Counted from the first letter of the stretch, positions 1-3,396 are shown. The stretch is 20,000 nt of DNA from an uncultured virus (IMG/VR IMGVR_UViG_3300028805_000095) (IMGVR_UViG_3300028805_000095), one strand, 5' to 3'. The notes: generated by a model from the letters alone, not told the origin. Numbers and translations are program-made.

Positions 1-454
1 CTCTATAATATCATGGCTAAACAGGCTAAGTATATTAATCGTAATAAACGTTCTATGGATAGAAATCTCAATCTAAAGAATCAACAGTTATTTAGATTTC
101 AATCTAAATATATAGAATTATATGATGAAGTAGTAGAGATTCTATCTGGAAAGAAAGGTGAACTAAGAACACTTGTATCTGGTAGATTTAACTTTAGTTC
201 TAGAAATGTTATTAAACAGAATCCGAACTTAAGAATCGACCAGGTCGAATTACCTTATGCGGAATTGGTAATTACACAAGAACAGAGAATCATTAATATA
301 TTGCATAGAACTTATAATATTACTTATCAAGAAGCATATAATCAATGGTTCAAAGCAGTAGGAGAAGTTGATCCAATAATTGTAAATATATTACAGGATA
401 TAATTAAATCCTCATGTAATGGAGAAGGATTACCTGTAATAATTAATAGAAATC
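1..454 (+). CDS. Phage multisubunit RNA polymerase beta' N-terminal (catalytic) subunit, first exon in window (open at left edge)
   Basis: Frame is open from base 1. KKGELRTLVSGRFNFSSRNVI..NPNLRIDQVELPY and PVIINRN match beta' motifs (K.G.FR..L.GKRVDFSGRSVI; LLNRAPTLH). Similarity stops at C454, where GTGCG begins. Confidence 0.9.
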
Positions 455-1049
455 GTGCGACTTGTTCAATATTGAAAAGATATTGCATAGATTATAAATC
501 TATGAACTGATAACTCGAGAAGTGGAATGATAGGGTAACGCCTTGAAACACTCCTCTAATACTCCGACATGCATTAAGGTGAAAACTTTTTTGTATGAAG
601 CTCGGTGAAGTCGGCATTTATATATGTCGGGAGTCTATAAAGTATCCATGGTGAGTATGATAATTTATCTGACGAACTTCTGAATTAAAGTCTTGTATTA
701 GTGTGGTCTAGTAAGAAGGGTTTCTATGAACGACCATAGTATATTATAGGTATATTCTAGCTAATATAATTCACAAGAAGCACCTAAAGATACATATGCA
801 AAGATAGAGTTATTGGAACAAGGAAAGGTAGATATGTTCATATCTGCTGAAAAGCGGTGATCGAAGCGTAGATAATTCTTGTAATGAGAATAGGAGTAAT
901 GGTCACCAGTCAATATATTGTATATAATAGTATCTCGAGAATTATTATATATCTTATATTGATGGCACGCCGTATGCGGTGAAAGTCGCATGTACGGTGT
1001 AGAGTGGGGGAAAAGATAGAGATAACTTCAAAGTCTTACCTATCACTAT
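455..1049 (+). mobile_element. Group II intron, ORF-less (595 nt; resembles bacterial class B / IIB)
   Basis: 5' GTGCGA at 455. 34-nt domain V ACGCCGTATGCGGTGAAAGTCGCATGTACGGTGT at 967-1000 (CGC triad, GAAA loop). Domain VI ends TTACCTATCACTAT at 1049. EBS1 GGTTTCT (719-725) is complementary to the exon end AGAAATC (448-454). Removal restores NRN-PTI. Confidence 0.92.
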
Positions 1050-1067
1050 CAACTATATCATATGGAT
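1050..1067 (+). CDS. RNAP beta'-N micro-exon (18 nt; P-T-I-S-Y-G-S)
   Basis: C454+CA ACT ATA TCA TAT GGA T joins both neighbouring exons in frame to give NRNPTISYGSIL, equivalent to bacterial NRAPTLHRLGI. Confidence 0.88.
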
Positions 1068-2210
1068 ATGTTATTTGTCCGGCTGGATAGTGATATCCAG
1101 TAAAAACTACCGTATTAATTGCTGGAAACTCCTTAGAGCTTAAAAGTACTAGTAATAGTAATAATCTTTTAAGATTGGACAATCAGCAGCGAAGAAAAAG
1201 TATATTTAAATAAAATAAATAGGAGGTGATATTTCATGACTCCTATAAAATGTGCATATGAAAAGTTTGTTGACATAACAGATAAAATTGTCCCAAATGT
1301 TAAACCATATTATAAGATTAGTAATATGGGAAGAGTTTATAGTTTACATTCTGAAAAAATTATATCGAATGCTATAGATTCCAAAGGATATTATTATGTA
1401 CAGCTACAAACATATAATGGACCCAAAGCTTGTAGAATTCATAGACTTGTATTAACAGCATTTGATTATCATGAAGGTTGTGAGAATGAATTGGTGAATC
1501 ATGTCGATGGTGATAAATTAAATGATGATTTATTTAATCTAGAGTGGGCAACTTATTCCTCTAATCTTTGTCATGCTATTAGTCATGGATTAATTACATA
1601 TGATAATAGAGGTTCATTATCAAATGAACAAGTTGAAACAATATGTAATTATTTGATGGATTTAAATTATTCACCAACAATGATTGGTCAAATATTAAAT
1701 ATACCGCAAAATATGATATATTCTATATATTATAGAAGGGCATATTTGAGCATTTCGTCGAAATACACATTTCCTGATAGATCAAATATCAAATATAGTC
1801 GTATATTACCTATGAATAAAATAGAAGATATTTGCAAAGCATTTCAGGATACGGTAAACGAAAGACAATCAATGGGTGCAGATGATTATATTCGTTTATG
1901 TTTGAATATCGCAAATGTTGATATTAACAAATCAACAATTAGACTTGCTCAGAGAATATTATATAAATCAGTAAATACAGAAATATCAGATAAATATACT
2001 TTTTAACGTTCAACGACTATCAAAAGCATAGTATAGGAGAAAGACCTATATGAAGAAGCGAGTAGAGTAGAATACAAGTGTATTCGAAATGTACGGGGAC
2101 TCTATATTGGTAACAGATATAGAGTTGAAGATATAGTCTAGTATCCCATTATAATGATGGGGAAGTTCATAAGAGAACTGCACAGATTAACGACCTGTGT
2201 GAATGATACG
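1068..2210 (+). mobile_element. Group I intron (IA2-like) carrying an HNH homing endonuclease
   Basis: P1: exon UGGAU pairs with GUCCG (1077-1081), with U.G at the splice site. P AATTGCTGGAAA 1117-1128; Q AATCAGCAG 1181-1189; R GTTCAACGACTA 2008-2019; S AAGATATAGTC 2128-2138; P9.0 GTATC/GATAC then omega-G 2210. Confidence 0.92.
1236..2006 (+). CDS. Intron-encoded NUMOD4/HNH homing endonuclease
   Basis: YKISNMGRVYS (NUMOD4-like) and RIHRLVLTAF...VNHVDGDKLNDDLFNLEW (HNH_3-like). SD AGGAGGT at 1221-1227. The ORF lies in the P6 loop between Q and R. Confidence 0.9.
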   Translation: MTPIKCAYEKFVDITDKIVPNVKPYYKISNMGRVYSLHSEKIISNAIDSKGYYYVQLQTYNGPKACRIHRLVLTAFDYHEGCENELVNHVDGDKLNDDLFNLEWATYSSNLCHAISHGLITYDNRGSLSNEQVETICNYLMDLNYSPTMIGQILNIPQNMIYSIYYRRAYLSISSKYTFPDRSNIKYSRILPMNKIEDICKAFQDTVNERQSMGADDYIRLCLNIANVDINKSTIRLAQRILYKSVNTEISDKYTF

Positions 2211-2302
2211 CAATCTTACAGATGTACTGCGTTGGTATTAACTTCAACTATTGTATGAGTGTTCCTCTTAGTGTATTAGTACCTCTCGCGGCGGATTTTG
2301 AT
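2211..2302 (+). CDS. RNAP beta'-N exon (92 nt) ending in ...PLAADFD
   Basis: T1067+CA ATC TTA CAG ATG ... CCT CTC GCG GCG GAT TTT GAT translates as SILQMYCVGINFNYCMSVPLSVLVPLAADFD, the first half of the catalytic ADFDGD motif. Confidence 0.9.
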
Positions 2303-2593
2303 AAAGATATAAGCTGTCAAAGTAAAACTCCTTTAATTGCTGGAAACCCTCGTTAGGCTTAAGGTACCAAAGTGTGACAATCCTTAAGATAGAGACAATC
2401 AGCAGCGAAGCTCTAGAAATAGAGAACGTTCAACGACTATCGAAAGCATAATATAGAAGAAATATCTATATGAAGAAGCGAGTAGAGTAGAATGCAAGTG
2501 TATTCGAAACGGGGAGCAGTGTAAGTATGGTAATAGTATTTATACTGAAGATATAGTCTAGACTATATAGAGATATATAGATATTAAACATCA
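2303..2593 (+). mobile_element. Group I intron, ORF-less (291 nt), inserted within DFD/GD
   Basis: P1: UUUUGAU pairs with GUCAAAG (2316-2322), with U.G at the splice site. P AATTGCTGGAAA, Q AATCAGCAG, R GTTCAACGACTA (2428-2439) and S AAGATATAGTC (2548-2558) are present. Removal restores DFD-GD. Confidence 0.9.
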
Positions 2594-2833
2594 GGCGATG
2601 TCTTAAATATCATGCATATTGTGAACTCAAACTTTTATGAAATGGCTAGGGAAGTATTTAATCCTAGAAATGCCATGTATATATCTAGAAATGACGGTAT
2701 GTTGAATAAAGATGTATTACCGCAAAAAGATACATTGGTAAATCTTAATACTTTGAACGATATGTCCTTACGTAAATATAGTGACTCTGAAAGAGAGCAT
2801 ATCGAAAAGATTAAAGCTAAATTTGTAGGCTAG
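2594..2833 (+). CDS. RNAP beta'-N last exon (GDVLNIMH...FNPRNAMYISRNDG...stop)
   Basis: GGC GAT GTC TTA AAT ATC is in frame with the 2612-2833 ORF. The subunit ends about 80 aa after DFDGD, as in the split beta' of phiKZ/AR9-type phage RNAPs (probably the non-virion enzyme). Confidence 0.88.
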   Translation, partial: GDVLNIMHIVNSNFYEMAREVFNPRNAMYISRNDGMLNKDVLPQKDTLVNLNTLNDMSLRKYSDSEREHIEKIKAKFVG

Positions 2834-2893
2834 TTTAAAAAGAGCAGTAATGGAATAGTTATAGAGAATGTGATTTTCCTATCTGCTCTATTT

Positions 2894-2978
2894 GGTAGTG
2901 TGGCAGAGCGGAATTGCGGAGGCTGAGAAGCCTCGGTATCTGATCAATACCATGATGGTTCGACTCCATCAACTACCA
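2894..2978 (+). tRNA. tRNA-Leu(GAG)-like gene, aberrant (6-nt anticodon loop; possibly pseudo-tRNA)
   Basis: Acceptor GGTAGTG/AACTACC (one G.A mismatch), D arm with GG, anticodon stem GAGGC/GCCTC, long variable arm GGTAT/ATACC, T arm GATGG-TTCGACT-CCATC, discriminator A; no encoded CCA. Confidence 0.7.
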
Positions 2979-2986
2979 CATGGCAT

Positions 2987-3156
2987 TGAAGGTTTGGCTT
3001 GCTTAGGACCTTCATAAAAACCTGTTCCCAACGATGATTTCTAAAGAGCAAGTAGAATCATCTGGCAAGGGCGGAAGATAAAAAACTTGGGAAGGTGTGA
3101 CGAACGGTTGGGGTGTCCTCGACGTTTAGTAGTCCGTGCTTAGAGTTACCCTTGCA
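2987..3156 (+). ncRNA. Unidentified structured RNA (kissing loop plus pseudoknot)
   Basis: GC-richer non-coding stretch with five recognisable helices and a 7-bp loop-loop complementarity; details in findings. Confidence 0.55.
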
Positions 3157-3186
3157 TTTAAATATATATTTGGAGGTATTATATAA

Positions 3187-3396
3187 TTGGATAATAAATA
3201 TTGTAAATGGGTCATAAGACCTGGGACTAGTGGAAGTTTATGGGCTCATACACCATGTAAACATGGATTTAATTATCTAAGTAAAATAAGTAGACCTAGT
3301 GAGGTAGAAGATGCATATAATGGAAGATTATGCCCTATATGTGGTAGAACTATTAAGATAGATATGTCATTAATGGTAGATGATATGGAGGTGTGA
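3187..3396 (+). CDS. Small Cys-containing (zinc-ribbon-like) hypothetical protein
   Basis: SD GGAGGT, TTG start, CPICG motif plus upstream Cys residues. Confidence 0.7.
   Translation: MDNKYCKWVIRPGTSGSLWAHTPCKHGFNYLSKISRPSEVEDAYNGRLCPICGRTIKIDMSLMVDDMEV

Follow-up and report, generated by a model that had tools for sequence, protein, structure and literature searches.

A group I intron in a jumbo phage RNA polymerase gene ends in A instead of G

The terminal G of group I introns is treated as universal, the textbook account being that it docks into the pocket of the guanosine cofactor, and a U...G rule sets the intron boundaries in annotation pipelines and intron databases. The locus described here, part of a 20,000-nucleotide stretch of DNA from an uncultured virus (IMG/VR IMGVR_UViG_3300028805_000095; hereafter the window), raises the question of whether a group I intron that interrupts the catalytic motif of a phage RNA polymerase can end in A instead, and of how its 3′ splice site would then be placed.

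The window includes a gene for the N-terminal beta-prime subunit of the RNA polymerase of an AR9/PBS1-like jumbo phage. In tblastn searches, exon 1 matched phiR1-37 g274, BpSp gp018 and AR9 g270 with 31-35% identity (E 2e-10 to 4e-6) and exon 4 matched phiR1-37 g274 (E 1e-3); exon 1 also gave a weak match to the Pfam family RNA_pol_Rpb1_2 (19.9 bits, under the cut-off of 25.3). The NRNPT and DFDGD motifs are both present after splicing, and the gene stops shortly past DFDGD, as expected for the AR9 g270 type; membership of this polymerase in the non-virion set is presumed from the annotation of AR9. One group II intron and two sister group I introns split the gene, a layout (Table 1) that we read from the window DNA against the intron-less relative L005, which reads NRNPTISYGSIMQCFCVGINFNF...PPLAADFDGDTLNIMHI. 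The boundaries of the group II intron restore NRN-P-TISYG, matching L005. Exon 2 measures 18 nt (1050-1067), and two ribozyme classes, group II on one side and group I on the other, must each recognise this one tiny exon. The P1 helix of intron 1 pairs GGAU with GUCC, a pairing for which L006 carries a compensatory change (GGGU with GCUC), and the 5′ splice site of intron 1 was placed at 1067/1068 (a slash marks the splice site here and below) because of the intron-less L005 together with this covariation. The candidate site 1061/1062, with GUGAUAU as its guide, was ruled out by the same two relatives, the supposed guide being the loop of the P2 hairpin. The reading frame within intron 1 (1236-2006) matched NUMOD4 at 33.1 bits and HNH_3 at 20.6 bits, the latter under the cut-off. 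Intron 2 has no endonuclease gene and lies 92 nt from the endonuclease-bearing intron 1, and the cores of the two introns are close. Beyond the gene, ARAGORN reported a 'tRNA-???' with a two-base anticodon at 2894-2979; the Rfam search at E <= 1 gave no tRNA match in 900-3300, and so none under this prediction.

Table 1. Exons, introns and helices of the polymerase gene in the window, and positions of intron insertions in the DFDGD codons of the window and its relatives.
Feature	Position	Strand	Sequence and evidence
Exon 1	1..454	+	Runs off the 5′ end of the window; 3′ end ...AAT AGA AAT C
Group II intron, ORF-less	455..1049	+	GUGCG...CACUAU; RF02004 120.8 bits at 502-641; RF00029 56.9 bits at 965-1049 (Rfam)
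Exon 2, 18 nt	1050..1067	+	Between group II intron and group I intron 1; intron-less L005 = NRNPTISYGSIMQ
Group I intron 1 (sister)	1068..2210	+	Homing-endonuclease ORF 1236-2006; last base G2210; RF00028 weak in two halves, 20.9 + 24.2 bits
Exon 3, 92 nt	2211..2302	+	3′ end GCG GCG GAT TTT GAT (AADFD); relatives P0002, P0003, P0006 uninterrupted
Group I intron 2, 291 nt, no ORF	2303..2593	+	RF00028 82.2 bits (gathering 50), E 7e-20, at 2259-2580
Exon 4	2594..2833	+	5′ start GDVLNIMHIVNS...; to stop codon 2831-2833; tblastn to phiR1-37 g274; 155 protein relatives
P1 of intron 2	2297..2321	+	Exon UUUGAU 2297-2302 with guide GUCAAA 2316-2321, 6 bp; U2302.G2316 at the 5′ splice site
P10 of intron 2	2594..2596 with 2313..2315	+	GGC with GCU (P1 loop), 3 bp; directly abuts P1
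P7 5′ strand of intron 2	2433..2439	+	A(C)GACUA; G2435 pairs with C2558 (guanosine-binding pair); same strand in intron 1
P7 3′ strand of intron 2	2554..2559	+	UAGUCU; contains C2558
P9.0 5′ strand of intron 2	2561..2562	+	GA; 2 bp with U2591-C2592
P9 hairpin of intron 2	2563..2580	+	CUAUAUA-GAGA-UAUAUAG; read in sequence and in Rfam match
P9.0 3′ strand and last base of intron 2	2591..2593	+	UC (2591-2592), then A2593 (omega-A); pairing and junction enumeration
Insertions at D/FDGD			L006, L038, L040, L041, L044; L020 as D/YDGD
Insertions at DFD/GD			Window, L028, L030, L031
Insertions at DFDG/D			AR9, L042
Insertion after DYDGD			L025
Insertion within the G codon of DFDGD			L037

To place the end of intron 2, we combined each 5′ end in 2270-2340 with each 3′ start in 2540-2630, which gave 6461 splice pairs. 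The frame stays open to the stop codon at 2831-2833 in 1056 of them, and a single pair restores D[FY]DGD, namely 2302/2594, with T2302 as the last exon base, A2593 as the last intron base and G2594 as the first base of the following exon (2586-2599 reads AAACATCA/GGCGAT). Forty-six of the open-frame pairs combine U at -1 with a terminal G, and DFDGD is restored by none of these; taking G2594 as omega yields GAT GCG ATG TCT TAA, the same result that an earlier note on this DNA had given. The junction is fixed to the base: T2302 is unlike A2593 and A2303 unlike G2594, so it cannot be shifted in either direction. Intron 2 lacks the omega-G that nearly all group I introns have, A2593 being the only last base that fits DFDGD. 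In the intron-less relatives the same codons are continuous (...AADFDGD[VT]LNI...): AADFDGD is uninterrupted in L005, P0002, P0003, P0006, P0010 and P0123, three of these proteins (P0002, P0003 and P0006) read MYCVGINFNY...AADFDGD without a break, and the passage from exon 3 to exon 4 reads straight through as ...PLAADFDGDVLNI in P0002, P0003, P0006 and P0010.

The frame argument decides the 3′ site, because helices of 2-3 bp would on their own be at chance level. The core of intron 2 from P3 to P8 is recognised by RF00028 above the gathering threshold (Table 1). In its P9.0 register, the P7′ strand is followed by one base and then by the two P9.0 bases; in a comparison that took in 15 introns, the same register was found in intron 1 (GU with AC before G2210), L044, L042, L017, AR9 and AM1. 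The P7 strands are identical between the two introns, of which intron 1 ends in G, and no compensating specificity change is present in intron 2, since G2435-C2558 and both P7 strands match those of the sister intron. The earlier note had placed the 3′ splice site after A2593 on the grounds of the frame, of a P10 formed by GGC with GCU beside the U.G pair, and of a P9.0 pairing of GA with UC in the register of the sister intron, and had described the guanosine-binding G-C pair of P7 as unchanged; P10 can be read in the sequence as described, and the other observations hold likewise. Over the regions P7-P7.1-P7.2-P3′-P8-P7′, introns 1 and 2 align almost base for base. In intron 2, P7.1 pairs AUAUAGA (2451-2457) with UCUAUAU (2465-2471), and P7.2 pairs GAAUGC (2490-2495) with GUAUUC (2500-2505). 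The IA2 subgroup, as Michel and Westhof are said to have defined it in 1990, has the extra hairpins P7.1 and P7.2 between the P7 5′ and P3 3′ strands, and on the hairpins read in its sequence intron 2 appears to be IA2-like. The likeness of the two introns suggests that they may have arisen by local duplication and spread by co-conversion.

Contigs assembled from sequencing runs were compared with the window across this region. In the Logan re-assembly of run X1, 2461-3300 is covered at a depth of 10.4 with 0 differences and 0 gaps, a result that is independent only as an assembly and not as data, because X1 may hold the source reads of the window itself. Run X4, a metatranscriptome from another sample and another study, contains a 260-nt contig (record 22) that matches 2594-2827 in 234/234 letters, with 0 differences, and that extends upstream by 26 further letters without continuing into intron 2. 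These 26 letters may be exon 3, from spliced RNA or from an intron-less DNA allele in the library, or they may belong to another intron variant; whichever their origin, the contig breaks exactly at the predicted boundary between intron 2 and exon 4. The X4 RNA library may contain DNA, and this contig cannot separate …CA/GGC from …CAG/GGC. A 280-nt contig of the same run, also with 0 differences, joins 2210 to 1070, the last to the third base of intron 1, which is what a circle of intron 1 would look like if G2210 had attacked after U1069. This joint suggests that intron 1 is active and behaves as an intron with a terminal G should. The remaining joints among the contigs, whose sides are short, probably derive from different introns in the metagenome, and only 2210>1070 was used; conclusions were based on neither uncovered parts nor depths. 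Neither a 2302>2594 joint nor a loose end at 2594 was found among the joints and loose ends listed for the Logan contigs. In runs X3 and X5, contigs of ~88-90% relatives span 2460-2825 and so cover the A2593 site.

We then asked how the interrupted motif ends its introns in other phages. In the protein collection, 155 short ORFs resembling exon 4 are related to that of the window, and 41 of them were fetched. The proteins P0004, P0005 and P0020 start with 'MGD', a start that implies an NTG codon before GGN and hence, judged from the start chosen by the gene caller, a DFD/GD intron ending in G; P0123 is an intron-less allele within the P0004 cluster. A profile scan of IMG/VR covered 30 loci, with DFDGD uninterrupted in 13 and interrupted in 17, the latter being 12 distinct loci after 5 duplicates were collapsed. 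Of the 12, eight have G immediately before the 3′ exon (L017, L025, L028, L030, L031, L040, L042 and L044), three have A (L020, L038 and L041) and one is ambiguous, G or A (L037); adding L006 and AR9, both G, and the window, A, brings the totals to 10 G, 4 A and 1 ambiguous (n=15). The earlier note had proposed comparing same-site introns in other jumbo phages: the relatives interrupted at DFD/GD itself (L028, L030 and L031) end in G, and the terminal A was found at a neighbouring position of DFDGD. When the window, L006, AR9 and the IMG/VR loci are taken together, the 15 nt that encode DFDGD contain five insertion points for group I introns, or six if L037 counts (Table 1), and these 15 nt are a very dense homing target in gut jumbo phages.

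An orthologue of intron 2 itself was not retrieved from the IMG/VR, phage-record and genome-contig searches. IMG/VR gave 0 matches to the back-translated pattern GD[VT]LNIMHI and 0 to the exact 31-nt stretch from P7′ to P9, and blastn of 2100-2850 against phage records returned conserved-core matches only, with no record matching over at least 80% of the query. A MAFFT alignment of the same-site introns ruled out L031, L030 and L042 as close orthologues. The single-protein IMG/VR scans with exon 1 and exon 4 as queries returned nothing but L001, which is spurious, and the four weak loci from the scan of genome contigs (L007-L010) are unrelated. Rfam at the gathering threshold gave no match in L001, L004, L005 and L006.

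Several of the interrupted loci are themselves unusual. In L017 (1700-2500; the same in L018) the upstream exon ends in ...NAD and the downstream exon starts with GDV, and FD is not simply supplied between them; these loci may hold two introns around a micro-exon. The insertion in L037 (2132-2500) has G and not U as the last 5′-exon base and no RF00028 match, and the same locus has RF00028 matches elsewhere, at 1094-1406 (80.8 bits) and at 1689-1966 (47.4 bits, under the gathering threshold of 50). L031 shows three RF00028 matches within one stretch of the gene (1130-2487; 53.6, 57.1 and 40.6 bits), and a heavy intron load is typical of its phage clade.

The introns that end in A deserve a closer description. 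Those of L038 and L040, both at 1953-2494 and both at D/FDGD, are 98% identical, the former ending in ...UUUAGA and the latter in ...UUUAGG, and their flanking exons have 97-100% amino-acid identity to the intron-less L039. The introns of L041 (1090-2494) and L020 (969-2256), inserted at D/[FY]DGD, encode endonucleases and have A as their last base. In L020, L038 and L041 the last base is A or formally U and never G, because the first intron base and the first base of the 3′ exon are both T. RF00028 matches to these introns are weak (L038, 18.3 bits, E 0.03) or, for L041 and L020, absent at E <= 0.001; the P4, P7 and J8/7-P7′ motifs can still be read in all three. Outside the polymerase gene, intron 2 of nrdF in Lactococcus phage AM1, whose 5′ site is fixed by a P1 of GUCGGU with GCUGAC, ends in ...GGUACUA/UCACGG, with UCAC and GUGA forming P10 and AG and CU forming P9.0. 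The column aligned to its terminal A is G in Enterococcus phage LG1 (...UAUUG/ACAUGG) and Brochothrix phage ADU4 (...UACUG/ACACGG). Seventeen Lactococcus phage records are 97-100% identical over the AM1 query and, being so similar, give little conservation depth; the terminal A was read in AM1 and WRP3 only. The P9.1/P9.2 region of the AM1 intron is homologous to that of window intron 1, so that the terminal A arose more than once within one broad phage intron family.

We consider it probable that intron 2 is a working group I ribozyme of IA2-like type whose last base is A, a prediction drawn from its boundaries and pairings, from the unchanged G site and from the recurrence of a terminal A in related introns. 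The first step would be ordinary: the U.G pair would keep U2302 in P1, and a free guanosine occupying the P7 pair G2435-C2558, which is unchanged, would attack after U2302. In the second step, the 3′ site would be placed mainly by P9.0 (GA with UC) and by P10 (GGC with GCU, abutting P1) and not by docking of a terminal G, so that U2302 could attack the A2593-G2594 phosphate in line. Once ligated, the message would read ...GAT TTT GAT GGC GAT... and encode DFDGD, the magnesium-binding loop of the polymerase. The second step would presumably be slower than with G and its efficiency reduced, and the two reactions that depend on a terminal G, circularisation and hydrolysis at the 3′ splice site, would be suppressed. 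The suggestion of the earlier note that splicing is a slow step which limits synthesis of the polymerase is speculative. Having no endonuclease gene of its own, intron 2 may spread by co-conversion with intron 1, 92 nt upstream.

Against a working intron stand, among other points, two observations. In the Tetrahymena ribozyme, as Michel in 1989 and Been and Perrotta in 1991 reportedly found, changing the terminal G to A blocks exon ligation unless the P7 pair is also changed; intron 2 has an unchanged P7 pair, unlike the compensated ribozyme. In addition, the same-site introns of relatives (L028, L030, L031 and, by their start codons, P0004, P0005 and P0020) end in G. Both would also fit a recent disabling mutation, in which the terminal G became A in the lineage of the window, splicing is poor or fails, and the genome is a defective or declining variant. 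Such an event would agree with the L038/L040 pair, where A and G differ between near-identical introns, and with the want of an orthologue of intron 2 among the sequences retrieved. However, the gene is otherwise intact and open through its four exons, a contig of 259,257 bp carries the exon 4 ORF (P0121), and 234 letters of exon 4 recur without a difference in X4, a run from another sample and study, where the matching contig breaks off right at 2594. Moreover, at least four more phage introns end in A, that of the AM1 group among them. On this evidence we regard a disabling mutation as unlikely.

It is more doubtful still that the ribozyme uses mixed 3′ sites. The G-binding site would often take G2594, leaving the message one base short (DFD-AMS-stop), and only a fraction of the transcripts would encode active polymerase, as waste or as a regulatory throttle. 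G2594 adjoins the splice site and a G is what the P7 site is made to bind, and in an excerpt of PMC6545197 more than 70% of mushroom-coral ND5 precursors are unspliced around an intron without a terminal G. Against such mixing, P10 and P9.0 both fit A2593 and not G2594, and the sole contig on the exon side of the junction begins at 2594 and not at 2595, although contigs drop rare variants; we therefore hold this to be very improbable. An error of sequence or assembly is what we would least expect. The true DNA would then have G at 2593 or a third G (…CAG/GGC…) and not …ATCAGGCGAT…, and the intron would end in G after all. The first exon base is a G within a GG run, where the loss of a base is conceivable, and the X4 contig, as noted, is blind to this difference. 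Yet the X1 contigs agree with the window without a gap, albeit perhaps from the same reads; an extra G would put CA before omega, which does not pair with GA (2561-2562), and the P9.0 register of the sister introns would be lost; and the terminal A recurs in independent assemblies.

Given a working intron that ends in A, its terminal base could be more than an accident. With P9.0 intact and the G-binding pair unchanged in each, at least five introns (those of the window, L038, L041, L020 and AM1 nrdF) might have acquired the terminal A independently, as a recurrent and tolerated state that is possibly even selected, a reading that we put forward tentatively and think unlikely to be correct in full. 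If it were selected, a 3′ site read only by the intron's own P9.0 and P10 would insulate against exon skipping by a sister ribozyme, the terminal A would abolish 3′ splice-site hydrolysis and circularisation, and it could throttle the supply of polymerase; the setting would be one of similar ribozymes that crowd a homing hot spot or stand in tandem. If this is true, L038 (A) with L040 (G) and intron 2 (A) with intron 1 (G) are ready test pairs for the second step of a G-specific ribozyme on A.

How far does intron 2 resemble systems already described? Tandem group I introns in the 23S rRNA of Coxiella burnetii, one of them without a terminal G, are reportedly the subject, by its title, of a 2007 paper by Raghavan and colleagues (J Bacteriol 189:6572). 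We know of no report of a non-G terminal base in the orf142 introns of Staphylococcus phage Twort. The window pair is like that of Coxiella in that the introns stand in tandem, here flanking a 92-nt exon, and that one of them, here the downstream one, lacks the terminal G; unlike it, the Coxiella introns lie in an rRNA and not in a protein gene and, according to the part of PMC10136302 available to us, belong to subgroups IB2 and IA3. The same excerpt describes introns 2 and 3 of Twort orf142 as a highly similar IA2 tandem with a 23-nt exon between them, in which likeness to the window pair is evident, and reports that exons are skipped where similar group I introns follow one another in Twort orf142 and in Coxiella (PMC10136302). 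In ND5-717 of the sea anemone Stichodactyla haddoni, the terminal G is 'replaced by' A, as worded in an excerpt of PMC8146996, and mushroom-coral ND5-717, without omega-G and with most precursors unspliced as given above, nevertheless yields perfectly ligated exons in vivo in the passages available of PMC6545197. On these partial sources, ND5-717 and intron 2 are alike as group I introns in an essential protein gene whose last base is not G, and as in the ND5-717 type intron 2 has a terminal A that P9.0 and P10 place at the 3′ splice site. ND5-717 differs in being mitochondrial, obligatory and vertically inherited, in its giant gene-carrying P8 insertion and in its subgroup, and it back-splices in mushroom corals, whereas intron 2 is a 291-nt phage IA2-like intron in a homing hot spot.

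Among phages, AM1 nrdF intron 2 belongs to the same broad family and shares with window intron 2 the terminal A, an intact 2-bp P9.0 and a P10 abutting P1, but it lies in a ribonucleotide reductase gene, comes from another host group and has a long P9 extension. The g270 intron of Bacillus phage AR9, likewise of group I, interrupts this catalytic motif in the orthologous gene and has an identical J8/7-P7 sequence, and the AR9 endonuclease g271 (HNH) is of the same NUMOD4 and HNH_3 type as that of window intron 1; unlike intron 2, the AR9 intron is inserted 3 nt downstream (DYDG/D) and ends in G (…AAAUG/GAC). In our literature search no phage intron with a terminal A came up; as the Greek letter omega is not searchable, reports may have been missed. 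The earlier note had taken intron 2 for a rare natural omega-A: the rarity stands, but the state is less singular than was assumed there, for related phage introns show the terminal A again and, for bacteria, the title on Coxiella points to a published case. The terminal A of intron 2 is a real and rare state, and the phenomenon, known in kind, is found here in a phage protein gene with natural A/G pairs.

In view of the published exceptions, omega-G is near-universal and not strictly defining. Introns 1 (G) and 2 (A) form a natural system for how far P9.0 and P10 can replace recognition of the G, and a comparison of the two could show the gains and losses in reaction rate, in hydrolysis, in the making of circles and in the skipping of exons. 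A gene caller bound to a terminal G would join the exons of this gene wrongly or break it up, and breakage of the gene is already visible in the many short exon 4-like ORFs of the protein collection. In an excerpt of PMC11620839, the endonuclease of an intron lying in the polymerase gene of a jumbo phage serves as a weapon against a second phage infecting the same cell, and the dense homing target at DFDGD fits such a role of intron endonucleases between co-infecting jumbo phages.
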